The notes under the pieces were generated by a model. The model searched no databases. It was given only the letters and a program-made list of their open reading frames with translations, and was not told the DNA's origin. Shown here piece after piece: positions 8,215 to 64,000 of a stretch of DNA of 64,000 bases. The position numbers were made by a program, and so were the translations under genes. Every line of letters begins with the position of its first letter. Position 1 is the stretch's first letter. Source of the stretch: Centruroides vittatus (lineage: Eukaryota); NCBI RefSeq assembly GCF_030686945.1, contig NW_027122668.1, forward strand, positions 188,099 through 252,098. Reading direction: 5' to 3'.

Positions 8215-8565
8215 CGAAAATTATTTTGTTACACGAAGGACGAGAACCTAGCTTATAAGGACCTTTTGTCTTGGACTCTAGGCCATCGCAGGTTCGGCCG
8301 AATGGTAAGAAACACGGCCCGATATATCCGATTTACCCACAAAAATTTTCGAGTTTCTTAGCCCACCCGGATGCGATACCCGGTCTTGAGAGCCATAGGT
8401 TGATGTCTCAACCGCTCTGGTTTCACCAAAGACTATTAGTCTATTAGTACGTTTTTATAGAATTAAACCGTATCCTCGAACTCTTCACGTAGACAGCCAG
8501 ATGGTCGAACCGTAAAGGTGACAGCCTACCACTCCGGAGAACCCGAAATGGAATCCGGAGATAAG
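8215..8565. mobile_element. Degraded copies of the tRNA-derived SINE family (body fragment in minus orientation ~8280-8460; head fragment in plus orientation ~8490-8565)
   Basis: 8497-8560 'gccagatggtcgaaccgtaaaggtgacagcctaccactccggagaacccgaaatggaatccgg' resembles the SINE head at 58523. The rc of 8280-8385 resembles the SINE body ('...tcgggccgtg...ggccgaacc'). Confidence 0.4.
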
Positions 8566-9691: not shown

Positions 9692-9710
9692 TAACAACAA
9701 CAACAACAGC
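9692..9710. repeat. (CAA)6 microsatellite
   Basis: caacaacaacaacaacag. Confidence 0.8.
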
Positions 9711-9826
9711 GGATAAGTTAATATTTATTACGATGTTAATCTTTAGTATTGCCACATCAGTTCTATACGCGATTTCCAGAAACACGTTGTAATCGTGGGC
9801 AAGAAATTGAAATTTAAACAGTCGAA

Positions 9827-10203
9827 ATGAGTGCATTAAAAGCGGACAGGAATTATAACGAAGAAAAAATCATCAAAACACATCCTGTAGATACTAAAGA
9901 TGCTTATTCAATTACAGTTCTGTTCTGTTTCAAGATAGATCATTTATCAAATTCTGTAAAAATTCTCATTTGTTCTTTCCTTCTTTTTGTATTTTTTATT
10001 ATCTATGGTTATTTGCAGGTGAGTGGAGTTATTAAATGGATTACTTTGATTAATGTCGTCTACATAAAGGCTTTGTTTCAGGAATTGATTTTTCAGTTAG
10101 AAGAATTTAAACCTTTTGGAATGTATCTAACTTTCATGCAATTTTTATTATATTCTTTTATATCTTTTCTAGAATGGTGTGTAAATAAAAATTGTCATAG
10201 AAG
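9827..10203 (+). CDS. Candidate 5' coding exon of a multi-pass membrane protein, possibly nucleotide-sugar transporter (SLC35B-like); ends at donor GTAAGC
   Basis: ATG at 9827 and an open 126-codon frame ending at 'ag|gtaagc' (donor at 10204). It contains two hydrophobic helices (ILICSFLLFVFFIIYGYL; LTFMQFLLYSFISFL). The motif 'EEFKPFGMYLTFMQFLLYSFISFLEW' resembles the 'KHPGCGNIVTFAQFLFIAVEGFLFE' region of SLC35B4-type transporters; this comes from memory only. No downstream exon was identified. Confidence 0.3.
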
Positions 10204-10243
10204 GTAAGCTTAAATGTTTTTTGAGTCAATTATTGGTTAATGT

Positions 10244-10325
10244 TACCTATGGTAGCGAACATGGCGGCTCGTCTCTGAAACAGTGGGGTTGCACGTTCTA
10301 ACCTAACCTATTCTATTTATCCTAT
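10244..10325. mobile_element. Truncated member (one arm) of the GGTTAATGTTACCCTAGGTA MITE family, carrying (CCTAA)2
   Basis: 'ggttaatgttacctatggtagcgaacatggcggctcgtctctgaaacagtggggttgcacgttctaacctaacctattcta' matches the left arm of the 63314-63545 MITE. The partner arm is absent, and a foldback element follows at 10388. Confidence 0.5.
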
Positions 10326-10387
10326 TCTAAAATGTGCATACTTGATAGACGTTTCCAAAGCACACAGAATTATTTGTGCCGACTCGT

Positions 10388-10985
10388 ATGAAAAATGCTA
10401 TAAACAAAAGCCAATAGGACTAGTTGCCGACTCTGCACCGTTTGGGCTGCCATTGCTTAAGTTTATTTTCGTGGTGGAGCAGCTCGGTGTATGAGGGACG
10501 TGCACAAAATGTGTTACGTGACCCGGCTTCGACATCACTCTATTACGTGACTACCTAGAAAGGTCGGCCACGTGATGTCTCTGATGTATTTCCCGAGAAC
10601 TTTTCGGACTCCGAAGAGTTTGTGGACTATAGTTTGTTAAATTTGTTGTTTCCGGTAATACTGCAATATCCTAAAACAAAACTGATTGACTATTAACTTT
10701 TGTAAAAAACAATAAATAAATTGTAAAATTACTCGTGTAGCAGCCTTAAAACTTCAATTACATTAAGTTCTCGGGAAATACGTTAGAGATGTTACATGGC
10801 CGACATTTCTAGGTATTCACGTGACCGAGTCACATGGAAGCTAGGTCACGTCACATATTTTGTTCATGTTTTCCATTTATTGTGCTGCTCCACAACGAAA
10901 ATAAACTTAGGCAATGGCAGCCCAAACAGTGCAGAGTCGGCAAGTAGTTTGATTGGTTTTTATTTGTAGCATTTTTCATGTGATT
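10388..10985. mobile_element. Foldback-type element: ~285-bp inverted arms around a ~30-bp loop (centre ~10680)
   Basis: 10388-10660 is the reverse complement of 10700-10985, e.g. 'atgaaaaatgctataaacaaaagccaatagg...' against the rc of '...ccaatcaaactacttgccgactctgcac...catgtgatt'. Confidence 0.55.
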
Positions 10986-12120
10986 TGGACAAGTAATCCC
11001 GTGTTTTGGAAATGTGTGTCTTTTAAAAAACAAGTTAGAATGAAAATGAATAATGGTAAAAAACTATATAATTATTCTGCATTTTTTATTAAATTAAAGT
11101 AAATTAATTATTCTTAATACGTATATATCAACTTCTCGAAGCTTGATGTATTGATACAATGCCAAACGTTTACTTAGTTTCTAGTTATTAATTATAGCAT
11201 AATAATAGCCCGATTAATTATGGCGATCATTTTTCTCAGTATTCTCAATACATTTCATAAATTCTGCTATAATTCTAATCTTGTTAAGATGTGGTACTTG
11301 ATTAAAGATGGATATCATCTTAAGAGTAGTACGTTATACATAATCTAAAATTTTTTATTTATTAACTTAAAATAATTTAATACTCTAAAAATAATGAAAA
11401 AATGTACATACTTTTTCTTCAGACCACTAAATCTTTTCAGCCTTCAGCAAAGCGTGTAAAATGCTATTACAAATTCACAAATGTTTTCAGAATCCACTTG
11501 ATTCATTTCAAATTGGCAATGGTGCACCCTGTGGTTGGCCAAAGGGTCCTCACATCTCCAAAATTAAAGGAAAAGAAACATTGGTAAATTTTTTGAAAAA
11601 TATTTTCCTAAGTAAAATTTGTGTTTTTATTTATATAGTGTCATGTATTGTATTTTTATATTTCTTATGAATCAACAGTCACATAATTTGGGAAGTTTAT
11701 TGAGTTTGCATTAAAAATTTTTTTATCTGAACAACTTGGCTCTCCTGAAGAGTAAATCTTGAGTGTGCCACTGCAAATTGGAATGCGTATAATAGAACAT
11801 GAAAGCAATTCAAAACGAACTCTGTAAATTTGAAACTGGAATCGGGTAGATTCTGAAAACATTTGTTTGTTGCTATATTTTACATGTTTGGATGGAAGCT
11901 GAAGAGGTTTAGTGGTCTGAAAATATTACATGTTTCCAGTGTTAGTGAAGTACATTTTGTTATAAAGTAATATCTTGAGTTATGTAACACATGACTTAAG
12001 TAAATTCGCTGTTATGTAAAATGTAATTCTCAAAAATTGAAAAGAAGTCTGAGTAGAGTAATGTAATTTTACAAAGAATCTCTAATTCATACATTCTATT
12101 TCAAACATTCATTCATTCAT

Positions 12121-14737: not shown

Positions 14738-15072
14738 GTAGTGACGACTAATACTTGACTTTGTGCATTCCTTGTCAACAAAATAACTCTGGAATGGTTT
14801 GTCCGATCTTGATGAAATTATCTTGGACGACCCATCATCACTTAAGGATGAACTGATTAAAATTTTAACTTTCAGAAATGATCCGTTTTTGTAGAACTGG
14901 AGATGGGGGTTTTTCTTCAGTATGGATCATTTTTGAGAGTTGAAATTTTAATCATTTCATCCTTGAGTGAGAGTGAGTCGTCGTAGAAAATTTCATCAAG
15001 ATCGGACAACTCATTCTAGAGTTATAATGTTGACAAGGAATGCATGAAGTCAAGTGTTAGTCGCTTCCTGCA
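14738..15072. mobile_element. Hairpin or foldback MITE (~335 bp) with arms of ~150 bp
   Basis: 14749-14900 ('ctaatacttgactttgtgcattccttgtcaacaaaataactctggaatgg...') pairs with the rc of 14905-15061 ('...ccattctagagttataatgttgacaaggaatgcatgaagtcaagtgttag'). Confidence 0.55.
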
Positions 15073-42452: not shown

Positions 42453-43103
42453 AATTAACTATATAAGAACTTCCGATGCAAACCGGAAGTTACGGTTTTT
42501 AATTCGAAACTCCACCTGCCGAAAGCAGTTAATAGATGACCTATTAACACGACTCTATTGTTAAAGAGAAAGTATGATGTACAGAGGCAAGCCACTACTA
42601 ATTTGAGGTGGAAAGCACATGTTTTAAATTAAATGATTTAAAACTATGATTAAAATTTGCATCCCCGGCATTGTGACGGCTTCACAATAAACAATTGCTC
42701 GTAGCTGTAGTTTGTGTGTGAAAACTTTGGTTTCAACTCGTGAAAATATTTACAATGACAAACTACATTTTGTCGTGTTATGAACCACAATATTGAAATT
42801 AAAATCCTTTTAAGAGGTAATAAAAAGTTAATAATTGTGGGAAATGGAAGAAGCGTTGCATTTTTCCATCAAAAATAAACAGAGAAGTGCAAGAGACTGA
42901 TATGCAGAAACTACGCCATTAAGATGTGCACTATATCCATCATTGTGGATAACACAGTATATTAAGGCGAACTAACATTTTGTTCGTTATGTTGGAGACA
43001 CTGAAGCCGTAAGCCCGAATGGGGATTAGAAAATTACCAATCAAAAATGCATTCTTAAATAGGCGAAATAAAGAGAACTGTTTTAATCTCGGTCTCTGCT
43101 AGT
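42453..43103 (+). repeat. Unclassified non-autonomous repeat 'X' (~650 bp), copy 1; starts AATTAACTATATAAGAACTTCCGATGC
   Basis: The same ~650-bp sequence recurs at 59297-59651 plus 61114-61404, where it is split by an insertion, at ~93% identity. No TIRs. The internal palindrome 'cttccgatgcaaaccggaagtt' is read directly. Confidence 0.55.
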
Positions 43104-44291
43104 TGTGTATAATTAAGAAAGACGTGATAAATATTACTAGTCTGGCAATTGGGAGAAGAAACCTTCACTTATAACTTTTTATACGTTCTCCAGCCTGACG
43201 AAACAGAGTCTGTCTCCTCGAAGGCTTTGTACATTTCTAACCTTTCAAGTTGTTTCGGCCGAGGCACTATTTTCTCTCGATGGCGTCCTTTTGCTTTCTA
43301 AGGAGTGAAAAAATTGTAGGGTTCTTCTAAAACTCTACAATTTCCTCAGTCCTTAGAATTCTGTGCTTACTACATCAGGATCTATCTCTTTATAGATGGA
43401 ACAGAGGGCCTTGTGGTATGTGACTACCACACCGTGTGATAGAACTTCCTGGGCTGAAACATTTGAAAAGGATAGATATCTGCAAACCGTTCGAAATAAG
43501 GACAGCATGAACATACATAGTCCATTTATATGTTACTGTAGGCCTATTATGACACAATTTAGCAAAATCGCTGTAGAAAAAATTGCCGTTATAAACAATG
43601 TTGATATAAAATTAGATGACATCATCGTTTTGTTACAAAATATACTTTAAATTATCATTACGTTACTAAACGCCGTTTAGTAAAATCGTTATAAAAAGTT
43701 TTAATTGGCATAAATTTGAGCTTTTGTAACATTTTGAATAAAATGCATTTTATATGCATAAAATGAAGCCGTAAAACTAAATTAGCTCCATGGGAAACCC
43801 CCGTGAACTTTGACCTATAGACCCGGAAGTGTCGCTGATAACGAGAAAGGCTTAAGTTTAAAATTTGAGCTTTCTTGACCCAGTGGTTTCTCTCTACGAT
43901 TGTCTGCAGTGCCGGATGAAGAAAATACCGCTTTTTTGCAGATTTTTGCACTTTTCGATTGCTTATATTTCGGCAACCGCTTTATACAAAATCTTGAAAT
44001 TTTGCACACTACCTAAGAGAACAATTTTCCTTCGAACGACGAAATTACAATAAGTGTTTGAGGGACGGAGAAATCGGCCACCGAAAATCGGCAACTCTTA
44101 TATAATTATTCCTGTATACGTAGTTTACTTGCCGGGGAGTCACTAGTCACTACCATCACTCCTGATATAAGACACTAGATTATTGGATCAAATTTCATCC
44201 GTTATTATTAAATACAGAACGTCCTCAATATACGTCATGCTTAAGTTCCTAAAACTTGTCGTGAATGAAATGGTGTACTGTACATCGAATA

Positions 44292-44340
44292 TCAATTTCT
44301 CACCGAAATAATATATTATGGTACATTGCTGACCAACTAA
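44292..44340 (+). repeat. Left copy of a 49-bp perfect direct repeat flanking the PLE composite (putative long TSD)
   Basis: 'tcaatttctcaccgaaataatatattatggtacattgctgaccaactaa' is identical to 46501-46549. Confidence 0.6.
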
Positions 44341-45050
44341 TAATACACAAACACCTAATTACTTGCTGAGCTTGCTGATTTCTTTATTCTCTAACGTTTT
44401 CAACCTAATTTTTATAGGTCATCTTCAGGAAAAAATTTATTACATTTCCAAATTCGAATATAAAGCTTTCGAATGCTCGCGACACTTAAAACTTTTCGAA
44501 TCTTTACAAATTTTAACGGTTTAAATAATAACGGATTAAACATTAAACCAACTACAAACACATTAAAATCATTACTAATCAACAAACAAAATAAATAAAT
44601 AAATAAATAAATAAATATTGTATCAAAAGTAGATTAAACTAGTTAATGCTGCCATGTCCTTTCTACGGGTTTTTTAATCCCATTTCTTTTTCTATTATGT
44701 ATTTCCATGCCGTTGGAAGATTATTTGCGTCTTTTGCATTTAAACATTTGTTTTCCACCTTACTCTTATATATTTCTACTTTTTCCATCCCTAACGCAAT
44801 CGTAGGTGAATGGACTGCCTTTACTATTCTCGCTTCATCCCATTTTACGTTCGCTCCTTCCTCTTGTCCCATGATCGCCAAAATGGTGTTATTGTGCCCT
44901 TTTTTTACATCATATTTGTGTTCTTTTATACGTGTTGCCAAATTACGTCTAGTTACTCCAATATATTCTTTTGTTACCGCTAATTGCTCGTTCTCAAATG
45001 GAATCTTATAAACCCCCGCCTTATCCTGCATTCTCATTGCGTCCTTATCA
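44341..45050 (-). mobile_element. Inverted partial copy (GIY-YIG endonuclease region plus 3' UTR) of the adjacent Penelope-like element
   Basis: 44341-45050 is the reverse complement of 45787-46500. The ORF at 44663-45037 (-) is identical to the C-terminal 124 aa of the 45072-46175 ORF. Confidence 0.8.
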
Positions 45051-46500
45051 TGTTGAGGAATCTGTATATGCTTGGGATCTTTTATAAATCATTTTTGTGG
45101 ATTTGATGGGGTGACATACAAGCAAAAGAAAGGTGTCCCGATGGGAAGTCCCATGTCGGGACTCCTATGCGAGTTAGTAGTACGTCAACTAGAAAAAGAT
45201 ATCCTAAGATCATTTGAGGAGTACATTGTAATGTACAAAAGATATGTGGATGACGTATTGATAATTTGGAAAGATGAACGAAAGATTGGAGATTTTTTAA
45301 TTGCTATGAATGACAATCCGCATGGGTTACAGCTAAAAATGGAACAAAAAAGCCGTACGCAGCTCCATTTTCTGGACATAAATATAAAATTTAGAAGGGG
45401 AGATATACAAACTTCAGTATATTTAAAACCAACGCTTGCGCCCCTATATATACCGGCGTGGTCTAATGATCCGTTCAAATATAAGATGGCAGCGTTTAAA
45501 GCGCTTATTAAAAGGGCGTACGTATATTGCACAGATGTACGAGATCAAATTAAGGAGATTGACAGAATTAAAAAAGTGGCAAAACAGTTGGGTTATAAAG
45601 AGAACGTAATAGGAGGGTTAATTAAGAGTTACAAACAGCATAGACACAGAGGATTTAATAGAGAGGATCGGATCAGCAAGTTCACGTACGACAGAAAAAT
45701 GGAAGGAGTGATAGAAGAGTTATGTAGATATAAAGGCACAAAAATGATTTATAAAAGAGCACCAAGCATATACAGATTACTTAGAAATGATAAGGACGCA
45801 ATGAGAATGCAGGATAAGGCGGGGGTTTATAAGATTCCATTTGAGAACGAGCAATTAGCGGTAACAAAAGAATATATTGGAGTAACTAGACGTAATTTGG
45901 CAACACGTATAAAAGAACACAAATATGATGTAAAAAAAGGGCACAATAACACCATTTTGGCGATCATGGGACAAGAGGAAGGAGCGAACGTAAAATGGGA
46001 TGAAGCGAGAATAGTAAAGGCAGTCCATTCACCTACGATTGCGTTAGGGATGGAAAAAGTAGAAATATATAAGAGTAAGGTGGAAAACAAATGTTTAAAT
46101 GCAAAAGACGCAAATAATCTTCCAACGGCATGGAAATACATAATAGAAAAAGAAATGGGATTAAAAAACCCGTAGAAAGGACATGGCAGCATTAACTAGT
46201 TTAATCTACTTTTGATACAATATTTATTTATTTATTTATTTATTTATTTTGTTTGTTGATTAGTAATGATTTTAATGTGTTTGTAGTTGGTTTAATGTTT
46301 AATCCGTTATTATTTAAACCGTTAAAATTTGTAAAGATTCGAAAAGTTTTAAGTGTCGCGAGCATTCGAAAGCTTTATATTCGAATTTGGAAATGTAATA
46401 AATTTTTTCCTGAAGATGACCTATAAAAATTAGGTTGAAAACGTTAGAGAATAAAGAAATCAGCAAGCTCAGCAAGTAATTAGGTGTTTGTGTATTATTA
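45051..46500 (+). mobile_element. Penelope-like element, copy 2 (5'-truncated, 3' end intact) with a 3' UTR containing (AAATA)n-like repeats
   Basis: It contains the intact ORF at 45072-46175. The 3' region at 46200-46500 is mirrored upstream. It is flanked on the right by the 49-bp direct repeat. Confidence 0.85.
45072..46175 (+). CDS. Intact 367-aa PLE ORF: C-terminal part of the reverse transcriptase (motifs B to C, 'YVDDVLIIW') fused to the GIY-YIG endonuclease ('GVYKIPFENEQLAVTKEYIGVTRRNLATRIKEHK')
   Basis: Uninterrupted frame. 'KKGVPMGSPMSGLLCELV' and 'YVDD' are RT motifs. The GIY-YIG motifs match the Penelope endonuclease. It lacks RT motifs 1-3, so it is 5'-truncated and probably non-functional on its own. 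Confidence 0.7.
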   Translation: MGSFINHFCGFDGVTYKQKKGVPMGSPMSGLLCELVVRQLEKDILRSFEEYIVMYKRYVDDVLIIWKDERKIGDFLIAMNDNPHGLQLKMEQKSRTQLHFLDINIKFRRGDIQTSVYLKPTLAPLYIPAWSNDPFKYKMAAFKALIKRAYVYCTDVRDQIKEIDRIKKVAKQLGYKENVIGGLIKSYKQHRHRGFNREDRISKFTYDRKMEGVIEELCRYKGTKMIYKRAPSIYRLLRNDKDAMRMQDKAGVYKIPFENEQLAVTKEYIGVTRRNLATRIKEHKYDVKKGHNNTILAIMGQEEGANVKWDEARIVKAVHSPTIALGMEKVEIYKSKVENKCLNAKDANNLPTAWKYIIEKEMGLKNP

Positions 46501-46549
46501 TCAATTTCTCACCGAAATAATATATTATGGTACATTGCTGACCAACTAA
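46501..46549 (+). repeat. Right copy of the 49-bp perfect direct repeat flanking the PLE composite
   Basis: Identical to 44292-44340. Confidence 0.6.
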
Positions 46550-48129
46550 AAACAGTTTATGTGCAAGTGTCTAGTGTACAATAGGAAACTGTTTATATGG
46601 AAGTGTCGCTACTCGTTATACCAACCATACCTTTCTACATTCAACGGTTGACTCAACGGTGAGAGAACATTTCTAAATGGACCGTTGAGTTCTCCGTTGA
46701 GACTAGTGACGTCAACGCTGTTTCACCGTTGAGCTCAACGACCTCAAAGACTGTTGAGTATTCAACAAACTAATGTGGCCGTCGGCCATATTAATGTATA
46801 TTTTTGTAGTTTATAAATTTATGTTAGATTTAAGATTTCTCTTGTTTCTCTCCCTTTTCTGTTGACAATAAAGATCTCCTTCTTAATCACTTTACGATCT
46901 AATTGTTTTACCACCGGATGGGGAGTGATGCCTCCAGTAACGTTGTGAAAAAAAAAACAAAGTAATAAAAAATTGAGGGAAAGAGGAGGAAAAGAAGAAA
47001 GGAAGAGGAGAAGCGAGCTCGGCTCTCGACGAGAAAAGGTCGAGGAGCACGGGTTGTGAGTTGGAACGAGATAGGTAAAAGATCGAAGCTCGACGAGCGA
47101 GGTCGACACGAGGAAGACCTAGTGTTATAGTAGATAAAGGACTTCCTGACGGACTGACAATCGTACTGGACAGATTTGAGTGGATTATCGTCCAATGAAC
47201 GAGAGGGATCTACCGAAACAGAGGATACGAGGCATCAGTAACCCCGCTCAGCATCACGAAGCCAATAGCAAAATTCCCGGGTATTTCCACCTTCCCCTTT
47301 CTCTATACTTATATTCTCTCTCTCTTCAATTCTCATAGTCTGTAAGTGGATTTAAGATAGTTAAGGACCCTTAGTAATATTGATAGTTTTATATTACATA
47401 ATTTGGACATTGTCATACCACCGCTCACACGTTGGGATCTGTGTAAAAAAAGAACCTTGTAGCTTAGCGAATAAAGATATTGTTTTTTTTTTTTTTGTAA
47501 AATTAACAACGTGTATTTGTCAATCATTGCATACCATTCGCTGTCGGCTATAACACTAACATGGCGGCTTCCACGAAAAAGTAAATTTCGCTTATAGAAA
47601 CTATCCATTCGCTGCTGTGGATACTGTAATAGCAGAGAGATTAATGAACGATCTGTATATGATAAAACATGTGATTGCACGATTATGTTGGATAATTTAA
47701 TCAATATTGAAATATTAAGATTTGTTTTTATTTGTCCAAAATTGATTACGACCAATATTTAGCCCTCTAATTCTTCCTAATGATATAAATATTCAAGAAA
47801 AGTATACAAGAAAATGATACAGATATGGGTTCATTTGAATAAAAGGATATATTCGAATAATGGTTAAGCAAGCTACTTTAATTATTTAGCAAAACAGTGA
47901 CGATCGCCGACACAGGGCCGGATCATCGAATAGACAAATGAGGCAAATGTCTAGGGCCCGGATTTTTGAAGGGCCCGGTCAAACTGTCTACTGTATTTTG
48001 AAAAGATGTAAGGTTTGCCGACTTTAAAGGGGATACAATTAATCCCGCGTCACTGACATCAGTGTAAGATTTGGACTGGTGTAGACTGGGCTTAAATATC
48101 CCGCGTCAGGATGAGCTTAAGGGAACCCG

Positions 48130-53720: not shown

Positions 53721-55845
53721 TATTTATATACTTACTTTTTCAAAACTATCTTGGCTTTCATTTAAATTATTTTTTTCATTATTCAATTTACCTCTCATGG
53801 GTAAAATATTATATTATTTAAATATTAACCAAAAAAATTAAATTAAACTATTAATATTTTAAGGTAATATCGTTATTGTATAACAACTTTTGTTAGACAT
53901 TTAATAAAATAAATTTCAATTTTTTTAAATTTATAAACAAACTTTTCTAGAAAAACTAAAATTTTTTGTTGTATATTAAATATTTTTTATTAATAAAAAT
54001 TTAAGATTTGTTTTAGTTTTTCACATTACAGTAGTACCTCAGAATACGAAATTAATCCGTTCCTAAACTGTCATGAAAATGTCGTAAGGTGAATCATTTT
54101 TCCTCATATGATTACGTGTAAAACCAAATAATCCGTTCCAACACGAAAAACACACTCAAATTAAAGCTAAGTAGTACATTGAAAAAAATAACTTTAGTAA
54201 GGAAAACACTGAAAAATGCGTTTTGTAGTTGTAAATGTATAAATAACCATAATAGAATAACAATTGATTAAAAAAATGTAGCTTTATTTGCACTTTACCT
54301 TTGAGGATAGACGACGATGGAGGCGTAAACTGGTGGTGGAAAAGAGGGAGAAGGGAAATGATACTAAAACTTAACTTACATAACATAATGTATCAATAAC
54401 TAAAAATAACTTAACACTAATTTTTTTTAATCTTCTCTGTTTTATATATTTTTTAAAATTTTTTATTCACTGCTTTTTGCTTTCTTTCCTTCACTTCCAC
54501 CAGCACTTTCACTGGATAGAGGTCGCTTGGTAAAATATCTATCCAAAGAGGTTTGGCTTTGCCTACTTTTTAAAATGTTTCTAAAATGACTTAGGCAAAT
54601 GTCATTAAACTGAGCAGCAATGCGGCCAGTGTGAACCTTTTCGGGATGTTTCTTTTCAATAAAATCGGTCACAGTCACAATCAGAAAGAACACGTGATCA
54701 TGACGGTGGCGCTGCGAACTAATGTAACGTCGTATGGTGAGCTTTTGTTCGTACCGTGGAGCAAAAATGTGTTCGAATTTCATGTCGTATACTGAAAATT
54801 TCGTATGTAGAGGTATTACTGTATTTAGTTTTGTTTTATATTTGTTGTGTGCATTATTTCTTGTGGGAGAGGGAGGGGGCCCGGTAGGAAGAAATGTCTT
54901 AGCCCCCAAAATGGGTTAATCCGGCCCTGCGTGGACACCTCGTTACTTAAGTCAGCCATCTTGAAAAGCCACCTCAACGAAAGCGTTTCTTTTTTATGCA
55001 AAACATGACGTCAGATTGTTCAACGGAGGGACTCAACGGAAAATTCACTGTTAAGTCAACCGTTAAATAAAGAAACGTACGGCTAGTATAACAAGGTGAC
55101 AGCCAAATGTTTGAGCGGTTAAGACTTCGGTCTACCGTTCTGACATCGATTCGGCTCTGTCAAGTCCCGTTCCATACAGTTCAGCTGCCCACGTCATGGA
55201 TCTTTTCTTACCACACTAAATTTAACAGAAAAATTCATCACAAAACGATTATTGATGCTAATGTGTGAAATTCTGTTTAATCCATGCAAGATGTGTAATT
55301 ACCAGAGCCCCTTCGGCCGCCAATTTAAAGTCTTTTAATCTTTAAAATTGGCGTTTCCACTTCCCGGGACGAGGACCCAGGGGTTGGATTTGTGGGAAGC
55401 GAGTGTTCGGGTTGTTTCATTGTGTGGAATTACACAGAACGAGGCGCTTGGCGTATAAGTGCGTGAGTGAGAGAATTCGAGTAAAGGTTAAACGATGTAT
55501 ATCTTCGTGTACAGTGATGTTATGTCCGTGCGTGTGTGTGTAATCGAAGAACATCTTCGGCATGTCTATAAACAGAAAACAGTAAATTACAATACGAGAA
55601 TAAGATGTGTTGAAAATGAAACGAAAGCGTTCTTACCATCGGAGATTTCGGAAAATATGCACTTGTCCACTTGGTCCTGTTGGTGGTAAAGTTGGGGAGG
55701 GAGAGGAATCTCCCTCCCAAATGTTCCTAGAAAACACAAAGGCAGTGAGAAAACGAGAAGTTCATTCATTTATTACCTAAGGTTAATATTATTACCTTTA
55801 TCAGACAGTCTTTCTTCCCGAACAGTGTTATGAGAAGAGCGAAAA

Positions 55846-55885
55846 ACCTGACCTGGCCTAGCCTAGCCTAATCTAACCTACCCTA
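55846..55885. repeat. Degenerate interstitial telomeric-type repeat, about seven units of CCTAA / CCTAG (complement of arthropod TTAGG)
   Basis: 'cctggcctagcctagcctaatctaacctaccctaacc'. Confidence 0.5.
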
Positions 55886-55902
55886 ACCGGAAGCTCAAAC
55901 CT

Positions 55903-56968
55903 CATAACAGCTGATTTTGTCGAAACCGTGTTGTGTTTGATTAGTGTGTACAGGCACGATGAAGTGACGTTTATTTTTTCAACACTAGGCTAGTTGAATC
56001 TTTATTTAGTTAGAACGTGTTTTTCTACATCGACGTTTCGGGCTTCAGCCCCTCATCAGCTAACTAAACATATATAAAAAATATATTTTCTACATGGCAT
56101 AAATAAAAATCAAAAAACTAAAAACTCACATAAATTCTTTGTAGACCATACCTTGCTTTTGCATGGGTACTATACACACAGCAGAAATCGGACGACACTT
56201 AGGCTTTACATTTTCAATATCAATTTTTTCTCGCAACTTTAACTCCATAAAAACCAAACCGTTTTTTCATTTTATTACATAAATAAGATAACTTCTGTAG
56301 AAATTAAAAAATTAAAAACCAAAATTTACAAATTCCAAAGGTCGTTTTTACTACCTCATCGACCAATCCGACAATTTGCATATAGCACTGTGTGCCGTAA
56401 GTTGCACCTATTAACAAATTAATTAGCAACATTTGAACCCTTAAGGGTTTCTAAATGTTGGCTAATTAATTTGTTAATAGGTGCAACTTACGGCACACAG
56501 TGCTATATGCAAATTGTCGGATTGGTCGATGAGGTAGTAAAAACGACCTTTTGGAATTTGTAAATTTTGGTTTTTAATTTTTTAATTTCTACAGAAGTTA
56601 TCTTATTTATGTAATAAAATGAAAAAACGGTTTGGTTTTTATGGAGTTAAAGTTGCGAGAAAAAATTGATATTGAAAATGTAAAGCCTAAGTGTCGTCCG
56701 ATTTCTGCTGTGTGTATAGTACCCATGCAAAAGCAAGGTATGGTCTACAAAGAATTTATGTGAGTTTTTAGTTTTTTGATTTTTATTTATGCCATGTAGA
56801 AAATATATTTTTTATATATGTTTAGTTAGCTGATGAGGGGCTGAAGCCCGAAACGTCGATGTAGAAAAACACGTTCTAACTAAATAAAGATTCAACTAGC
56901 CTAGTGTTGAAAAAATAAACGTCACTTCATCGTGCCTGTACACACTTCACTAACAGCTGTTTGGGAAG
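55903..56968. repeat. Near-perfect long palindrome (inverted duplication): two ~530-bp arms with no spacer, centre at ~56442/56443 within 'gaaccctt|aagggtt'
   Basis: The arm 55938-56442 is the reverse complement of 56443-56950 with only a few indels (a 2-bp difference beside the centre and an ~25-bp deletion in the outer part of one arm). The outer ends are both 'aacagctg'. AT-rich and non-coding. Confidence 0.85.
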
Positions 56969-56984
56969 AAAGGTCGGCCGAATG

Positions 56985-57200
56985 TCGCATCCGATGAGTA
57001 GAAGTGTCAGGTCCGGGTGGTCACAATCGGGAGTCATATCCGTCGTTGTCGGGCTTGTCTCCCGAGTGTCACGTTCGGGAGACAAGTCCGTGGGTCACGA
57101 CCGAGTAAGAGAAGTCACGTCCGGGAAAAGGTGTCGAGTCCGGGTGAAAAGTGTCGAATCCGGTAAGAAAGTCGCATCCGGGTGAAGAAGAGGAAATCGA
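56985..57200. repeat. Degenerate tandem repeat of a ~20-bp GC-rich unit (aagtgtcgaRtccggKtRaaa-like) at the edge of a CpG-rich island
   Basis: 'gtcacgtccgggaaaaggtgtcgagtccgggtgaaaagtgtcgaatccggtaagaaagtcgcatccgggtgaagaag', with further diverged units upstream. Confidence 0.45.
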
Positions 57201-57206
57201 AGAGGA

Positions 57207-57689
57207 TCACCGCCTAGGCCAAGGGAACCGCAGCCGTCCGCAGCAACGAAACCACGGACAGCACGGTCCCTCAACTTCGGCGGCTCTCTTCTCCGATTCC
57301 TCCCCGTTCTGACTTCGGCAAGGCGGTGGCGTCGCCGTCGCGGACGAACGGGCAGAACGCGACCAACCAGAAAATGTCAACTCGGACGAGCTGTCATTTT
57401 CTATATCCTCCACAGCAAGGTCTGTGGCCGGATGACCCCCGAAGACCTTGGCCAAGTGCACTGGACCCAGGGTGTAGCATCGCATGATCCCGACTCCGGG
57501 AGGATGCCACGCCACGCGCACTTGGGGAAGGTCTTCTTTACTCGCTGCCTCTCGCTCGTCGAGCCCCCGCTCCTCCAACGGCACGGAACGACAGACTCGT
57601 TCCGCGTCGTCCGAGAAACCCCCTCCCTCCGGCGCCACCGTCTGCCTCCGCCGGAATCTCCTCCAAAGCCGCACCAACGTCGTCATCCT
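57207..57689 (-). CDS. Candidate minus-strand coding exon in a CpG-rich island (ATG immediately after a polypyrimidine/AG acceptor); speculative
   Basis: On the minus strand 'ttttctttttttacag|gATGacgacgttggtg' opens a 160-codon GC-rich frame, MTTLVRLWRRFRRRQTVAPEGGG...GPCCPWFRCCGRLRFPWPRR, that ends in TGA. No recognisable domain. A GC-driven spurious ORF cannot be excluded, and overlapping ORFs exist on the plus strand. Confidence 0.2.
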   Translation of the reverse strand, partial: RMTTLVRLWRRFRRRQTVAPEGGGFSDDAERVCRSVPLEERGLDEREAASKEDLPQVRVAWHPPGVGIMRCYTLGPVHLAKVFGGHPATDLAVEDIENDSSSELTFSGWSRSARSSATATPPPCRSQNGEESEKRAAEVEGPCCPWFRCCGRLRFPWPRR

Positions 57690-58522
57690 GTAAAAAAAGA
57701 AAATTTGCAATTAGTCCGGTGAAAACAAAAGCTTAAATTAATGCTTAAATTCTTCCGAGAAAAGCAAAATGCTGACCGCAGCTGCCTTTTTAAATCTAAA
57801 AGATTCGAATCCGAAGCGCAAACGGCCGACCATCGAACGATGTGCCGAGATGTCTTCTGAGACCGTTCCTTCAAGTAATATTAAATAAATTCTTACGTCT
57901 AAAGTCAATATGGACTAAGACTTACCTGAAAAATCTTTAATCTTCTCTGCAAAAGTCCTCAAACCGCAAAAAACAGCACGCAATCGAAGAGCACAACAGA
58001 AGCACGTCCGACCACAACAAGAAACACAATCGAACTGCGAATCGTCATGCGTGACGAATTTCGAATAACGTTAAAAGACGCGTCAACAATGTTCGAATTA
58101 CGTAAAAATTCGAATTAAAAAAAATCAATTTTATTTTTTTAAAATTAATTTATAATTTTTTTTTCTTTTTAAATTTTGCTTCAACCATTTTCTTGTGTTT
58201 GGAATTTGATAAATAAATTATCTTCTGCATTTACATGGTACAGAATGGCCACCGTGGAGAGGTGAAAGACGATCTTTTGAAATTTTACGTCACGAGGCTT
58301 GACCATCTCCGAAAATTGCCCGAAATTCGTTTGAATACGTTGATAAATATCTTTTTCGGTCGAAAAACTATTAATCGGATGAAACCAATCAAATTCTTAG
58401 GATTTCGATTTATTTCGCCCAATATTATTTCGCTTTACGGAAAGATTCATCGGTCGCCGTCGGGGTTGCGGGTTTCGCGTATTAATGCAACGTCAAACTG
58501 TATAAAGTTAATATTAAAAATA

Positions 58523-58775
58523 CGGCCGGATGGCCGAGCGGTCAAGGTGGCAGCCTACCGCTCTGGGGAACCCGGGTTCGAATCCCGACGGGTCGAAAAA
58601 TCCCCAGGAATTTTTCGGGGGGTGGTCCGTCCGGATATGTCGGGCCCCGTCCCTCACCACCCGGTCGCCCCATTGTGGGCCTGGCCGAACCCATAATGGC
58701 TTGCATAAAGAGGCCCTCTTAGTGCCCACAGGGCGGAAAGAGTTAAAAAATATATATATATATATATATATTAAA
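58523..58775 (+). mobile_element. tRNA-derived SINE (~250 bp) with Pol III A box (TGGCCGAGCGG) and B box (GGTTCGAATCC), GC-rich body and an A/(AT)n tail
   Basis: The head 'cggccggatggccgagcggtcaaggtggcagcctaccgctctggggaacccgggttcgaatcccgacgggtcg' is tRNA-like but does not fold into a complete tRNA by eye. The same ~250-bp unit recurs at 62071-62323 at ~85% identity. Confidence 0.7.
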
Positions 58776-59296: not shown

Positions 59297-59651
59297 CAAT
59301 TAACTATATAAGAACTTCCGATGCAAACCGGAAGTTACGGTTTTTAATTCGAAACTCCACCTCCCGAAAGCAGTTAATAGATGACCTATTAACACGAATC
59401 CATTGTTAAAGAGAAAGTATGATGTACAGGGGCAAGCCACTACTAATTTGAGTTGGAAAGCACATGTTTTAAATTAAATGATTTAAAAGTATGATTAAAA
59501 TTTGCATCCCCGGCATTGTGACGGCGTCACAATAAACAATTGCTTGTAGTTGTCTGTGGAAACTTTGGTTTCAACTTGTGAAAATATTTACAATGACAAA
59601 CTACATTTTGTCGTGTTATGAACCACAATATTGAAGTTAAAATCCTTCTAA
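59297..59651 (+). repeat. Repeat X, copy 2, 5' part (interrupted by element Y)
   Basis: Collinear with 42453-42815 of copy 1. Confidence 0.55.
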
Positions 59652-61113
59652 CAAGGAGACCCTACGGCTTTGGGGAAACGGATTTTGATGATCTTCGGTG
59701 TGGAGGTAGTACACCGTGTGAGTGTACTACCTGTAAAATACTAAAGTGCAATACTCAAATGTAATCGAGAAAAATGAACTTAAAGTTTTCTTTAGCACTT
59801 TATGTATAAGTTACGCGTACTATGGCTCGAGCGTACTGTGGCGTGAGTGGTAACGCTCCTGACTCGTGCGCTGGCGTGCTCGGGTTCAATTCTCTTGTGT
59901 ATAATTTTTTTTTATTCATAAATACTTATAATGTATTTATTATTTATTTATTTTAATTTAATTTCTACTGTTCCAAGCCTAATATTTTTTTCTGAAAAAC
60001 TCACCTTTTTCAAGTTGAGAGAGAACTATTAATACTTATGCCGGGTTTGAACATGGGTCTACAGTCTTTCTCACTCACTCTAACTCTTTGTTGACCAATT
60101 TCCACGCCCCCTTGTTTACTTTTAGTTTGTAAAACGACCGAAGGCACTACTCCATGTTTTAGCCGCTGCTTCGATACATCACTGTATAAAGAGTGATCAT
60201 CAACAGTTTTTTCGTCACAACGTGAGGAACTTGCTTCTCTTGATGACATTTTTGTAATTATAAAATAACTTTTCAAAATAAATTTCACTGAACAAATACG
60301 TCTATTCGAGTCGAAATTCAGAAACGAACGTTATATAGAGTTTTACAAAACAATATTTCACGTCTTTCTAGCGTAGTAGTGCCAAAAAATAACTAGACAA
60401 TGTTAATTTTGACAAAAAGTTACAAATAATGAAGTTTAAATGTCAGTTCAGATATATATATATATATTCTTATTAATTTCTCTAACAAAATATATTGAAA
60501 AATATCGTATTTAAACTAAAGATATTAATAAATGTACGCGATTTTCTTTCATACGAATATAATGATAATTTGATTTTTGGTGAATTTTTTAAAATAATAT
60601 TCCTGACTGACCAGTATTGCCCTCGGTTGTTTTACAAACTAAAAGTAAACAAGGGGGCGTGGAAATTGGTCAACAAAGAGTTAGAGTGAGTGAGAAAGAC
60701 TCTAGACCCATGTTCAAACCCGGCATAAGTATTAATAGTTCTCTCTCAACTTGAAAAAGGTGAGTTTTTCAGAAAAAAATATTAGGCTTGGAACAGTAGA
60801 AATTAAATTAAAATAAATAAATAATAAATACATTATAAGTATTTATGAATAAAAAAAAAATTATACACAAGAGAATTGAACCCGAGCACGCCAGCGCACG
60901 AGTCAGGAGCGTTACCACTCACGCTACAGTACGCTCGAGCCATAGTACGCGTAACTTATACATAAAGTGCTAAAGAAAACTTTAAGTTCATTTTTCTCGA
61001 TTACATTTGAGTATTGCACTTTAGTATTTTACAGGTAGTACACTCACACGGTGTACTACCTCCACACCAAAGATCATCAAAATCCGTTTCCCCAAAGCCG
61101 TAGGGTCTCCTTG
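59652..61113. mobile_element. Foldback-type non-autonomous element 'Y' (1,462 bp) with ~500-bp terminal inverted repeats (CAAGGAGACCCTACGGCTTTGGGGAAACGG...) and an AT-rich centre including (AT)n; inserted into repeat X
   Basis: 59652-60160 is the rc of 60620-61113. Relative to the uninterrupted copy 1 of X ('aatccttTTAAgagg'), the insertion lies at a TTAA, now flanked by the degraded copies 'ctaa' and 'ttag'. The arms contain tRNA-like A-box and B-box sequences ('tggcgtgagtgg', 'gggttcaattc'). Confidence 0.7.
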
Positions 61114-61404
61114 TTAGAGGATTAATAACTTCAATATTGTGGGAAACTGGAAGAAGCGTTGCATTTTCCCATCAAAAATAAACAGAGAAGTGCAAGAGAC
61201 TGATATGTAGAAACTACACCATTAAGATGTGCACTATATCCATCATAGTGGATAACACAAGTATATTAAGGCGAACTAACATTTTGTTCGTTATGTTGGA
61301 GACACTGAAGCCGTAAGCCCGAATGGGGATTAGAAAATTACCAATCAAAAATGCATTCTTAAATAGGCGAAATAAAGAGAACTGTTTTAATCTCGGTCTC
61401 CGCT
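61114..61404 (+). repeat. Repeat X, copy 2, 3' part
   Basis: Collinear with 42816-43103 of copy 1. Confidence 0.55.
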
Positions 61405-62070: not shown

Positions 62071-62323
62071 CAGACAGGGGCTGACTAGTGAATGGCTGAG
62101 CATCAAAGTAGCAGCCTATCTCTCTGAAGGACCCGGGTTCGAATCCGGACGGGTCGATAAATCTCCAGGAATTTTTCGGGGAGTGATCCGTCTGGATATG
62201 TTCGTGTCCCGTTCCTCATCACCCGACCACCCCATTGTGGTCCTGGCCGAACTCATGGTCTTGCTGAAAGAGGCCCTCATAATGCCCACAGGACGGAAAG
62301 GGTTTTTAATTTAAAAAAAAAAA
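62071..62323 (+). mobile_element. tRNA-derived SINE, full copy with A-rich tail
   Basis: Head '...gaatggctgagcatcaaagtagcagcctatctctctgaaggacccgggttcgaatccggacgggtcg', then the body, then 'ggacggaaagggtttttaatttaaaaaaaaaaa'. Confidence 0.65.
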
Positions 62324-63313
62324 TGCCAACAGGACAAAAGGAATTTGAAAAAATACTCGCCGAGAGGATAGATTTTTTTTTTTTAAATGCTAAAAATAAT
62401 TATTTTATTACATAAAATTTTAATTTATAACAAAAAGTTATCGATATAGACTTTTTAATATTTTATTAATTAATCCACAGGTAAATAACGTTTAAACCGG
62501 AAATTCGCAGATTATTGTTGAGTACGTGCACCATGTCTTTGATGGCAAATTAATTAATATTATTTATTTTGTTTTTCTTTTGTGATGCAAGTTTTACGAA
62601 CCGAAACTTACGATGTCTATGAACCCGACATGTGAATCGCACGAGCCCAAATTCCCGCGAGTAATGTCAAACTTTAATATTTGTACATTTTAAAACAGAG
62701 AAGTAATAACTGTACATAGTCATATACAGTATTTTGAAAACGAGATTGACTTTTCTACGAAATTTTAAAAAGTTTTCTTGTATTTTAGTCCTTGAATCAT
62801 GTTGAAACTTGTCACATTGTCTAGTGGGTAAACGTTACCTTCAGGTAAATTATGTATAAACACATACCTAAACATTTACCTAAAAGTAACTTTCACTGAT
62901 TGTCTTATAATGTGGATTTAAGTGCTTACTAGTAGGTGATGTGAAAAGAAATGCCTTCCACAAGTAAGTTGATTGATATTTTGATTTTTGGTTATTAAAT
63001 TGTACTAAAACATTTCAAAATTTTTTTAATTTTCTTTTATATATTGTTAAGATGCAGGTGTTTGCCATTTAATTATGGTAAAACAGTCTATTTACACCAC
63101 TGTCATGCTCTTAAATAAGGGGTGTGGTTATGTGCAGGGCTGTCAAGAGCTTTATGATGCCTGGGAATAGATTGGGGCCTTTTTTTTAATGAGTTTTGTG
63201 TGTAGAATGTTTCATTATTAATTAATAAAAAGCAGTCTTAAGTAATTTATTTTTCCAAGGATGTATCTAGAAATTTCTGAGTGTGGATCACCCACATTGC
63301 TGATTGTTTAGAC

Positions 63314-63545
63314 GGTTAATGTTACCCTAGGTATCGAGATAGCAGCTCGTCTCCGATCTCAGCAATCAGAAGACAGGGAACAGTGGGGACGCACATTCTA
63401 ACCTAACCTAACCTAACCTATTCTAATAAATTAGCATAATTATTAGAAAAGGTTAGGTTAGAATGTGCGTCCCCACTGTTCCCTGTCTTCTGATTGCTGG
63501 GGTCGGAGATGAGCTGCCATCTCGATACCTAGGGTAACATTAACC
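63314..63545. mobile_element. hAT-type palindromic MITE (232 bp), TIR GGTTAATGTTACCCTAGGTATCGAGAT, perfect 8-bp TSD GTTTAGAC, with internal (CCTAA)4 telomeric-type repeat
   Basis: 'gtttagac' lies at 63306-63313 and 63546-63553. The two halves are near-perfect reverse complements around an AT-rich loop. 'ctaacctaacctaacctaacc' is present in the left arm. Confidence 0.7.
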
Positions 63546-64000
63546 GTTTAGACCAAGGGTTGCCAAACTTTTTTGATCGTCGACCCCCTACAAGTTTTCG
63601 AAACCTCGCGTCGACCCCAACCAAAAAGTTTGTGTTACAAGCAAAACAAAGCACTTACTATTTTAATATATTTCTCTTTAATTTTGCATTTGTTTTTCAT
63701 TTATTGTATATTTGTTAATAATAATTTTTGTAACTGACAATCGGTGAGACGGATAAGCTTGATCCTTAGCTCCCCCTTATCCTTAGCCTAAGCTTGATAA
63801 TCGACCCCCTAATAATGTTATATCGACCACTTTGGTGACCCCTGGTTTAGACTGAACATATGAGTTGACTACTGTAAAAATGCAATTACGCAAGATCACT
63901 TACAACACATTATTGTGCCAAGAGCTGTCATATCATGCAATTGATAGACGTGATAATACTCAATTAAAAAGTCTGAACAAGTAAAGCATTAAATTTTATT

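Follow-up and report, generated by a model that had tools for sequence, protein, structure and literature searches.

The palindrome at the center of this study is quite probably the product of a single retrotransposition event carried out by the machinery of Penelope-like elements (PLEs) in a Centruroides genome. It lies within a 64-kb window, by which we mean the whole stretch of DNA that was analyzed, and the source of this window is a TE-rich scorpion genome. We favor this reading because hammerhead ribozyme motifs that face outward, a 9-bp target-site duplication, and a candidate tail that is restricted to one side all fit it. The earlier proposal of a mobile-element origin is borne out by these same features.

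Architecture of the palindrome

Repeat finding, global alignment and self-BLAST agree that the palindrome is real, that it lies where the earlier note had placed it, and that it is loop-less with few indels. The left arm spans 55943-56442 and has its sense on the minus strand, and the right arm spans 56443-56946 and has its sense on the plus strand. These orientations are taken from the hammerhead motifs described below, and they direct the 3' end of each unit toward the adjacent flank. In a global alignment the arms are reverse complements with zero spacer and zero substitutions. They are distinguished by four 1-nt indels, one of which is an A-run difference near 56338 while the other three lie at most 25 nt from the axis, and three of the four sit in homopolymer runs. 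Perfect arms are about 500 nt long; the previously stated length of about 530 bp counts an extension of 29 nt (55914-55942) that is present on one side.

The center of symmetry is a 10-bp perfect palindrome, CCCTTAAGGG, at 56438-56447, and the axis falls between 56442 and 56443, in agreement with the earlier placement of the center at 56442. Judged from the sequence, this axis is the head-to-head junction of two unit 5' ends, joined with zero spacer, and the 5' end of the arm unit reads AAGGGTTTCTAAATG. The two copies are inverted, and repeat finding reveals no direct or tandem repeats within 55900-56990. Likewise, TRF detects no tandem repeats between 55887 and 57118, and hence none inside the arms. 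Single-stranded DNA of the palindrome region is predicted to fold into one hairpin with a free energy of -603.5 kcal/mol.

Because the arms share zero substitutions, the structure appears to be young, as was also suspected in the earlier note, and the insertion is possibly still polymorphic. Ongoing homogenization, which had been offered as another way to explain the identity of the arms, is unneeded since both arms would be copied from one template simultaneously.

Outward-facing hammerhead motifs

A scan with a custom descriptor identifies a type-I hammerhead motif in each arm, at 56819-56886 on the plus strand (right arm) and at 56003-56070 on the minus strand (left arm). In the right-arm motif, helix I is formed by pairing of 56819-56829 with 56876-56886, and an unpaired G at 56837 sits just after the core sequence CUGAUGA (56830-56836). 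Helix II (56838-56849) consists of GGGC/GCCC with a UGAA loop, GAAA occupies 56850-56853, and helix III pairs ACGU at 56853-56856 with ACGU at 56871-56874. Cleavage is predicted to occur after U56875. The left-arm motif has a helix I of 11 bp, a helix III of 4 bp, and a complete core (CUGAUGA...GAAA...UH); its helix II forms five pairs in the best register of the scan, whereas the register that we have adopted gives 4 bp and leaves one base unpaired. Each arm thus carries a complete type-I hammerhead motif in the sense orientation, for which catalysis is putative.

The type-I descriptor scan of the whole window yields four matches: one in each palindrome arm, and one in each of the inverted arms of a coding PLE (46405-46451 on the plus strand and 44387-44433 on the minus strand). 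The background of the loose descriptor is 0.185 matches per shuffled window, and matches of the quality seen in the arms occur in 0 of 300 shuffled windows. Furthermore, the minimum-energy fold of the arm-motif RNA is a three-way junction (z = -3.0). The motif shares with the PLE hammerheads described previously (PMC4209133) a base left unpaired between positions 9 and 10.1, pairing of G10.1 with C11.1, and an ACGU palindrome in helix III. The predicted cleavage triplet is GUU, which is permitted, although GUC is usual. The helix III of the arm motif is full and closes a 14-nt loop, whereas the coding PLEs examined here have minimal motifs.

Rfam reports nothing at gathering score in the window or the palindrome region, and no hammerhead family is matched at the arm-motif site even at E <= 10. 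This negative result for hammerheads is uninformative because Rfam likewise misses the motif of the coding PLE in the window, which served as a control.

Both arm motifs face outward and stop some 60 nt short of the outer end of the arm, and therefore the unit 5' ends are central and the 3' ends lie against the flanks. The distance from motif to arm end is 60 nt in the palindrome, 47 nt in the coding PLE of the window, and 62 nt in a PLE from C. sculpturatus.

Target duplication and a candidate one-sided tail

The 9-bp sequence TAACAGCTG is present as a direct repeat on the plus strand on both outer sides of the palindrome, at 55905-55913 and 56951-56959. A direct repeat of at least 9 nt between two 45-nt flanks has a probability of 0.004 as estimated by shuffling, and 0.02 as estimated from random genomic pairs. 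There is no duplication immediately beside the perfect arms. Rather, the gap between arm and duplication is 29 nt on the left versus 4 nt on the right, and the two sides have unrelated terminal bases. The left gap is an AC-rich extension (55914-55942, minus strand) that is found on the left arm alone and is a candidate PLE 'tail'; when read in sense, and including base 55943, its sequence is TAATCAAACACAACACGGTTTCGACAAAAT. The corresponding 30-mer (55914-55943) is unique in the window. The right gap (56947-56950, plus strand) is the filler TCAC. An AC-rich stem-loop is predicted at the putative start sites of reverse transcription, and was dropped as evidence because it is no better than shuffles (z = -0.2).

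Searches for relatives of the arm

The arms are AT-rich and non-coding. They contain no RT or GIY-YIG ORF, as their longest ORF is 43 aa, tblastn is empty, and a search with concatenated six-frame arm peptides against 5.8 billion proteins recovers no homologue. Exact-protein look-ups of the arm ORF, the PLE ORF of the window, and the ORF of the neighboring GC-rich block also return no match. BLAST with a word size of 7 locates no second copy of the arm within the 64-kb window, and an exact 25-mer of the ribozyme core is not found in JGI metagenome contigs.

No similarity to any coding PLE that we examined, whether in the window or at six C. sculpturatus loci, is evident in the arm. Specifically, BLAST gives no match between the arm and the six C. 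sculpturatus PLE loci (138 kb in total), and the arm has no similarity to the 3' region of the PLE in the window. The possibility that the arm is a decayed PLE coding region was considered and rejected, as tblastn of the PLE protein of the window against the arm is empty. At best, then, the palindrome is a 5'-truncated or non-autonomous PLE product, and not an autonomous PLE.

Coding PLEs in Centruroides

Two coding elements serve as the principal comparators. The region at 44290-46552 of the window is a PLE with RT and GIY-YIG that is arranged as a head-to-head pair; the two copies are unequal, at 764 and 1401 nt, and the duplication measures about 50 bp. Locus L004 of C. sculpturatus (KZ495085.1, 7495-11362) is also a coding PLE in a head-to-head pair; here the duplication, ATGTAATTTTCA, is 12 bp long, and a tail of 37 nt is confined to one arm. 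The same tail is present in L005, an independent C. sculpturatus copy, and is missing from L003a, L003b and L004R. The center of L004 is an assembly gap (N-gap 8887-9971), such that comparison with this locus is limited to the sequenced parts of the arms and the outer junctions. An apparent perfect palindrome of 1797 nt in L004 was discarded, its length being inflated by the same gap.

DNA flanking the insertion

The left flank contains a degenerate (CCTAA/CCTAG)n tract at 55846-55890 that is TTAGG-like on the minus strand, TTAGG being the arthropod telomeric unit. This decayed tract is made of about eight phased pentamers, two of which are exact CCTAA. It yields three overlapping matches to (CCTAA)4 at three or fewer mismatches versus zero expected, indicating that it is non-random. 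The earlier note was correct that such a tract lies near the palindrome, although its spacing of 20 bp needs revising: 15 bp separate the tract from the duplicated target site, and 53 bp separate it from the perfect arm. The tract belongs to the target DNA that was there before the insertion, and is outside the element.

EN-minus PLEs attach to telomeric repeats. We nonetheless set aside a telomere connection as an explanation for the palindrome, given that the tract is 15 bp off the duplication and that the other PLE insertions examined are in plain AT-rich DNA. A second pentanucleotide tract of this type is found at 63397-63426, inside a MITE-like palindrome, and therefore such tracts may here be microsatellites borne by TEs.

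To the right of the insertion is a GC-rich block (56960-57720), with repeats of about 20 bp that resemble GTCnnnTCCGGGTGAAAAGT at 57119-57186. This block is likewise pre-existing target DNA outside the element. Its description as a GC-rich CpG island is accurate as to composition (59% GC and a CpG o/e of 1.18 for 56985-57720), but the CpG label says little because the CpG o/e of the whole window is already 1.0. The candidate exon that had been proposed within the block is unsupported: a 167-aa ORF on the minus strand (57207-57710) has no Pfam match and no homologue among the 5.8 billion proteins. Putative neighboring exons on the minus strand (55523-55769) also have no homologue in that protein collection.

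A model for the formation of the palindrome

Inverted copies placed head-to-head, a hammerhead motif, duplicated target sequence and a tail of 30-40 nt at one side together make up the published signature of endonuclease-containing PLEs. These elements are known to generate inverted, 5'-truncated copies that can bear a 30-40 bp tail at one end, and to carry hammerheads in their pseudo-LTRs (PMC8557442). Dual hammerheads on opposite strands, 100-700 bp apart, have been documented (PMC4209133), as have a 9-bp duplication, a 31-bp tail on one inverted pseudo-LTR, and palindromes at head-to-head junctions (PMC3846280). Moreover, a PLE protein in purified form cuts both strands and extends them, with reverse transcription starting from two internal sites, one on either side of the tail (PMC11167929).

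On this basis, we propose that the GIY-YIG endonuclease of an element would cut both target strands 9 nt apart around TAACAGCTG, at a pre-insertion (empty) site that would read CCTCATAACAGCTGTTTGGGAAG. From each of the resulting 3' ends, one and the same short, non-coding RNA bearing the hammerhead would then be reverse-transcribed. One cDNA would begin at the proximal start site and give the arm end ...CCTGTACACACT, whereas the other would begin about 29 nt further 3' and so acquire the 'tail'. The alternative 3' ends of the unit, about 29 nt apart, would thus be ...CCTGTACACACT and that sequence plus AATCAAACACAACACGGTTTCGACAAAAT. Finally, the two cDNAs would meet 5'-end to 5'-end, leaving inverted and spacer-less copies inside the 9-bp duplication. 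What can be read directly in the DNA is the pair of arms and the way they point, together with the ribozyme motif, the duplication and the extension on one side; that both strands are cleaved and extended, and that there are two internal starts separated by 30-40 nt, we infer from the published biochemistry. A hairpin- or template-switch-type event during DNA synthesis, which the earlier note had listed among the possible causes, is judged probable.

The equal lengths of the two arms are atypical for PLE pairs, as illustrated by the 764- and 1401-nt copies in this window. Equal arm ends could arise in either of two ways. The arms may be full-length copies of an RNA with a fixed 5' end (for example, the transcript of a solo pseudo-LTR or a non-autonomous, retrozyme-like unit), or else a single cDNA may have snapped back and copied itself.

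A more specific version of this idea, to which we assign a low probability, is that every arm constitutes one complete unit of a hitherto undescribed family of retrozyme-like, non-coding elements in scorpions. Such a unit would be about 0.5 kb in length with a full three-helix hammerhead, would be moved in trans by the RT/EN of PLEs, and would be inserted as whole head-to-head dimers. If so, the duplication and tail would be insertion-site evidence that PLE machinery moves retrozyme-type RNAs, and every insertion would create a perfect hairpin that could feed siRNA silencing of the family.

Other explanations for the palindrome

Several explanations that do not involve PLEs were also weighed. 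Cut-and-paste insertion by a transposase, whether of a foldback element, a Mutator-like DNA transposon or a MITE with long TIRs, would be expected to leave a 9-bp duplication of the type made by FB elements and MULEs, and other long inverted-repeat elements do reside in the window (for example, one with 530-nt arms at 59623-61142, and palindromes of the MITE-like type at 14745-15063 and 63306-63553). However, the inverted repeat of the palindrome falls short of the duplication on both sides (by 29 nt on the left, by 4 nt on the right), no duplication directly borders the perfect arms, and the arms lack tandem sub-repeats. These observations also count against the foldback transposon end envisioned in the earlier note. 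Furthermore, a DNA transposon leaves unexplained why a complete, outward-facing hammerhead is located at a PLE-typical distance from each end, and we consider this origin improbable. We regard as very improbable a local inverted duplication by template switching or fold-back break repair, in which one arm would be ancestral and transposition would play no part. The zero spacer, the short perfect palindrome CCCTTAAGGG at the axis, and arms that are identical but for indels would all be natural outcomes of this process, but such events give no direct duplication on both outer sides. Both outer ends of the palindrome instead resemble element 3' ends, and its layout mirrors that of coding PLEs of the same genus. 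As for the other events that had been suggested, nothing points to breakage-fusion or to a regulatory cruciform.

The palindromic nature of the locus also raises the concern that a chimeric fold-back read or a collapsed repeat made a single arm appear palindromic. Palindromes assemble poorly, the L004 counterpart is gapped at its center, and the four differences between the arms, each a 1-nt indel and three in homopolymers, are like the consensus errors of long reads. Against such an artefact, the palindrome is internal with unique flanks on either side, and the asymmetric 29-nt extension is unlike a mirror-image artefact. In addition, the flanking direct duplication makes sense only with two outer element 3' ends, and hence only with two inverted copies; we see very little chance that the structure is an assembly error. 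Least probable of all, in our estimation, is a hairpin-RNA (endo-siRNA) gene under selection, or a structural or regulatory cruciform kept for its function. A perfect 500-bp hairpin would be a Dicer substrate if transcribed, and Rfam models for long-hairpin miRNAs give sub-threshold matches at the center. Because the matches to MIR9563 and mir-968 are both-stranded and below the gathering score, they are best viewed as artefacts of a perfect hairpin. In addition, no counterpart is present in the sampled C. sculpturatus DNA, and zero substitutions are indicative of a young structure rather than one that is selectively kept. This reading is nonetheless compatible with PLE-mediated insertion because it concerns the consequence of the palindrome more than its origin.

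Implications

Retrotransposition by PLE machinery accounts for a striking palindrome without recourse to fragile sites, breakage-fusion or regulatory cruciforms. The structure is most likely an ordinary PLE footprint, in which a single staggered cut received two short, non-coding hammerhead units in head-to-head orientation. In invertebrate assemblies, perfect palindromes on the kilobase scale can be routine products of Penelope-like retrotransposition, and annotators can look for hammerheads that point outward, duplicated target sequence, and a tail of about 30 nt on one side as cues.

The palindrome is a clean specimen, with zero substitutions, zero spacer and both junctions intact, and it therefore offers a natural substrate for choosing between priming on both strands and snap-back self-priming. 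It is also a likely site of assembly trouble and dsRNA production. Its transcription would yield a perfect RNA hairpin of about 500 bp. If the arm does represent a retrozyme-like non-autonomous family, then retrozymes would be tied to PLE integration by insertion signatures.

Comparison with known systems

Long inverted arms and a 9-bp duplication are shared with Drosophila FB elements and long-TIR MULEs, as FB elements and MULEs generate duplications of this size. FB arms, however, are composed of tandem sub-repeats, and their inverted repeat extends to the very ends; neither feature is found in the palindrome. The inversions attributed to L1 'twin priming', said to have been described by Ostertag and Kazazian in 2001, are similar in that both target strands prime and in that inverted segments reside in one insertion flanked by a duplication. 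Unlike the palindrome arms, the L1 segments are different parts of one RNA and form no palindrome, and they are not known to be accompanied by a ribozyme or a tail.

[quoted passage not shown] Similar to these, the arms are non-coding and AT-rich, they carry a type-I hammerhead with a stable helix III of the kind reported in invertebrate retrozymes, and PLEs are present in the same genome. In contrast, the defining feature of retrozymes is a tandem array of direct repeats, about 150-400 bp in size and with a ribozyme apiece, that yields circular RNAs, whereas the palindrome consists of two inverted copies of about 500 nt with no direct repeat.

The palindrome resembles EN+ PLE insertions (Pen2a_Av; Penelope/Poseidon, PMC8557442) in its head-to-head copies, its sense hammerhead within the repeat, and its palindromic junction. 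It differs from them by having no RT or GIY-YIG ORF, equal arms with no unique sequence between, a full helix III, and no similarity to a coding PLE. The correspondence with Pen2a_Av of Adineta vaga (PMC3846280) extends to the insertion site, where both have a 9-bp duplication, and where the 31-bp tail on one arm of Pen2a_Av has a candidate counterpart in the 29-nt extension here. Finally, the coding PLEs of the same genus (L004 and the element at 44290-46552) encode RT/EN in their arms and have minimal hammerheads, and that of the window further departs from the palindrome in its unequal copies and its duplication of about 50 bp. Yet they share with it a target duplication and outward-facing hammerheads 47-62 nt from the arm end, and in L004 the tail, like the candidate tail of the palindrome, is restricted to one arm.

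Results

The earlier note had described a near-perfect, spacer-less palindrome with arms of about 530 bp. The palindrome is genuine and well beyond what chance would give, since region reading, repeat finding, global arm alignment and a self-BLAST of the window all agree that positions 55943-56442 and 56443-56946 are reverse complements with zero spacer. Only the arm length needs revision, in that the perfect arms measure about 500 nt. The symmetry axis falls between 56442 and 56443, within CCCTTAAGGG. When one arm is globally aligned with the other in reverse complement, no base is substituted and the only differences are four 1-nt indels: one falls in an A-run close to 56338 and three no more than 25 nt from the axis. 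These last three could reflect end-joining, repair of the palindrome centre, or consensus errors. As single-stranded DNA, the region is predicted to form one hairpin (-603.5 kcal/mol).

The arms lack internal tandem repeats and contain no ORF longer than 43 aa. No further arm copy was found in the window by self-BLAST, in a metagenome scan, in 138 kb of C. sculpturatus sequence, or among 5.8 billion proteins searched with the six-frame arm peptides.

A descriptor scan located a complete type-I hammerhead motif in both arms. In the right arm (+ strand), helix I (11 bp) pairs 56819-56829 with 56876-56886, and the core CUGAUGA (56830-56836) is followed by an unpaired G, a helix II composed of GGGC/GCCC with a UGAA closing loop, and then GAAA. 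Helix III (ACGU/ACGU) carries a loop of 14 nt, and U16.1 and U17 are present, with cleavage predicted to occur after 56875. When applied to both strands of the whole window, the descriptor returned only four matches, namely the two palindrome arms and the two inverted arms of a coding Penelope-like element (PLE). The loose form of the descriptor has a background of 0.185 hits per shuffled window, and matches of arm-motif quality were absent from 300 shuffles. At minimum energy, the RNA of the arm motif folds into a three-way junction (z = -3.0). An Rfam search gave no hammerhead family at this location, even at E <= 10, but this negative result carries little weight because the database likewise has no match for the hammerhead motif of the coding PLE. 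Cervera and de la Peña list an extra base between positions 9 and 10.1, a G10.1-C11.1 pair and a palindromic helix III core as traits of PLE hammerheads (PMC4209133), and the arm motif exhibits all three. The same authors describe paired PLE motifs residing on opposite strands, 100-700 bp apart (PMC4209133).

Both arm hammerheads point outward, with the RNA-sense strands running from the centre to the flanks. As a result, the 5′ ends join at the axis and the 3′ ends adjoin flanking DNA. Beyond the arms, positions 55905-55913 and 56951-56959 hold a direct repeat of 9 bp, TAACAGCTG (shuffling gives P = 0.004, and random genomic pairs give 0.02). Only 4 nt (TCAC) separate the arm from this repeat on the right side, whereas 29 nt (55914-55942) do so on the left. 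This left extension, together with base 55943, reads TAATCAAACACAACACGGTTTCGACAAAAT in the sense orientation, is AC-rich, and is found once in the window. The empty target site is reconstructed as CCTCATAACAGCTGTTTGGGAAG.

Coding PLEs of the genus provide comparators. The ORF at 45072-46175 of the window encodes a reverse transcriptase (RT) domain (RVT_1) and a weak match to a GIY-YIG endonuclease (EN), and its protein shares 98% identity with Centruroides vittatus proteins and 70% with those of C. sculpturatus, which places the window in a bark scorpion, most likely C. vittatus. The element (44290-46552) is a head-to-head pair composed of a 764-nt inverted copy and a 1401-nt right copy, with arms that are 99.2% identical. 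Its minimal hammerheads (46405-46451, + strand; 44387-44433, - strand) point outward, each 47 nt short of its arm end, and its topology is identical to that of the palindrome. The direct repeat flanking this element (44290-44343 and 46499-46552) is unusually long, at about 49-54 bp, and looks like a target-site duplication. In the C. sculpturatus homologue of the hammerhead at 46405-46451 (L001, ~11480-11530), core C3 is replaced by U, a change that probably inactivates the motif, and an A:U pair of helix II has become G:C through compensatory change.

Six C. sculpturatus loci were retrieved via exact-protein look-ups. Locus L004 (KZ495085.1, 7495-11362) holds a coding PLE (ORF 10001-11149) whose two copies, 7495-8886 and 9972-11362, lie head-to-head. 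An assembly gap (N at 8887-9971) occupies the centre, so the apparently perfect 1.8-kb arms given by repeat finding consist in part of N aligned with N. The minimal hammerheads of the pair point outward, each 62 nt short of its arm end, a 12-bp duplication, ATGTAATTTTCA, brackets the whole, and the left arm alone bears a 37-nt extension. The same 37 nt recur in the independent copy L005, while L003a, L003b and L004R end without them; the extension is the PLE ‘tail’, and one family has two alternative 3′ ends. In its duplication, its candidate tail on a single arm and its outward-pointing hammerheads, which end 60 nt short of the arm end, the palindrome matches L004 point for point.

The earlier note had also placed the palindrome next to a telomeric-repeat tract and a CpG island, but nothing connects either to its origin. 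The pentanucleotide tract (55846-55890), 15 bp outside the 9-bp duplication, is non-random yet decayed. The GC-rich block has 59% GC and a CpG o/e of 1.18, compared with 1.0 for the window overall, and its candidate exon amounts to a 167-aa ORF with no family and no homologue. Both are landing-site DNA of the element. The block opens (56985-57190) with imperfect repeats of ~20 bp that follow the pattern GTCnnnTCCGGGTGAAAAGT (TRF 57119-57186) and that could be sub-terminal repeats of another element. The window’s second TTAGG-like tract (63397-63426) resides inside a MITE-like palindrome (63306-63553; 250 bp, 88% identity) with (CTAAC)4.6 facing (GTTAG)2 at its centre, suggesting that tracts of this kind can be carried by TEs here.

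The window is AT-rich (35% GC) and dense in mobile elements, including a second PLE fragment, hAT-like, Pif1/Helitron-like and DUF7869 ORFs, and several further inverted-repeat elements detected by self-BLAST. A 2.1-kb element at 59298-61404, with ends CACAATATTG..., has 530-nt internal inverted arms (59623-60151 and 60613-61142, 98.1% identity), and 42453-43100 resembles a copy of it shortened to 650 bp by internal deletion, in which only the outer ~30 nt of each arm remain. Older palindromes or inverted repeats (78-80% identity) occur at 14745-15063 and 10349-11015, and at L001 19346-20130; foldback-like structures are common in these scorpion genomes. Also present are a GC-rich, C-skewed 63-bp minisatellite (5764-7116, ~21 copies, 88% identity) and a tRNA-Gly(ACC)-like sequence (58523-58596) heading a SINE-like repeat, which has two copies in the window (58530-58744 and 62092-62304, 83% identity) and one in C. 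sculpturatus (L001 11977-12167).

Discussion

The structure, orientation, motif, duplication and one-sided extension of the palindrome can be read directly from the sequence. Most likely, a non-coding unit with a hammerhead motif was inserted here head-to-head, leaving all the structural hallmarks of Penelope-like retrotransposition. The insertion is real, young and well preserved.

A foldback or MULE-type DNA transposon would be compatible with the 9-bp duplication, but is contradicted by termini that are asymmetric rather than inverted and by arms without sub-repeats, and it leaves the ribozyme geometry unexplained. Duplication through template switching during replication does not predict a direct duplication at both outer sides. 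That the arm differences are all indels is what might be seen in an assembly artefact, yet an artefact would not produce the duplication, the asymmetric extension and the unique flanks. Selection for a hairpin-RNA gene gains no support from conservation in the C. sculpturatus DNA sampled, and concerns consequence rather than origin.

The insertion mechanism can be framed by published biochemistry, from which we take two-strand priming and dual start sites as most likely for the palindrome. Purified PLE protein cuts and extends both DNA strands, and reverse transcription begins at two internal sites in an AC-rich stem-loop, with the tail being the sequence between them (Frangieh et al., PMC11167929). 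At the palindrome, a PLE RT/EN protein would cut the target with a 9-nt stagger, and both 3′ ends would prime cDNA synthesis on template RNA of the same kind. One cDNA would begin at the proximal start site and the other at the distal site, yielding the tail, and the two would then be joined 5′-to-5′.

The equal arm ends leave two options. Each arm may represent the full length of a short RNA whose 5′ end is fixed, such as the transcript of a solo pseudo-LTR or a retrozyme-like unit that is non-autonomous. Alternatively, one cDNA may snap back and copy itself, the copy joining the other target side before reaching the tail. A constant 5′ end among genomic copies would favour the former. By analogy, the unit may belong to a repeated family partnered with an autonomous PLE, and the 29 nt may be element-derived. 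The main value of the palindrome is as a clean specimen for how PLEs produce inverted copies.

PLE insertions are 5′-truncated, frequently with an inverted 5′-truncated copy at the 5′ end; one of their ends bears a tail of 30-40 bp, and their pseudo-LTRs contain hammerheads (Craig et al., PMC8557442). In Adineta vaga, the typical Penelope structure combines an inverted pseudo-LTR with a 9-bp duplication, and one of the inverted pseudo-LTRs carries a tail of 31 bp; head-to-head junction palindromes are abundant and ascribed to self-priming (Arkhipova et al., PMC3846280). The arm hammerhead is not of the minimal type seen in the coding PLEs examined here, and instead resembles motifs with a stable helix III that have been described in invertebrate retrozymes (PMC7761336), which have been proposed as non-autonomous PLE derivatives (bioRxiv 10.64898/2026.07.22.740005). 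Because the tandem arrangement that defines retrozymes is absent, we do not class the palindrome as one. It may nevertheless connect RNAs of the retrozyme-like kind with integration by PLEs.
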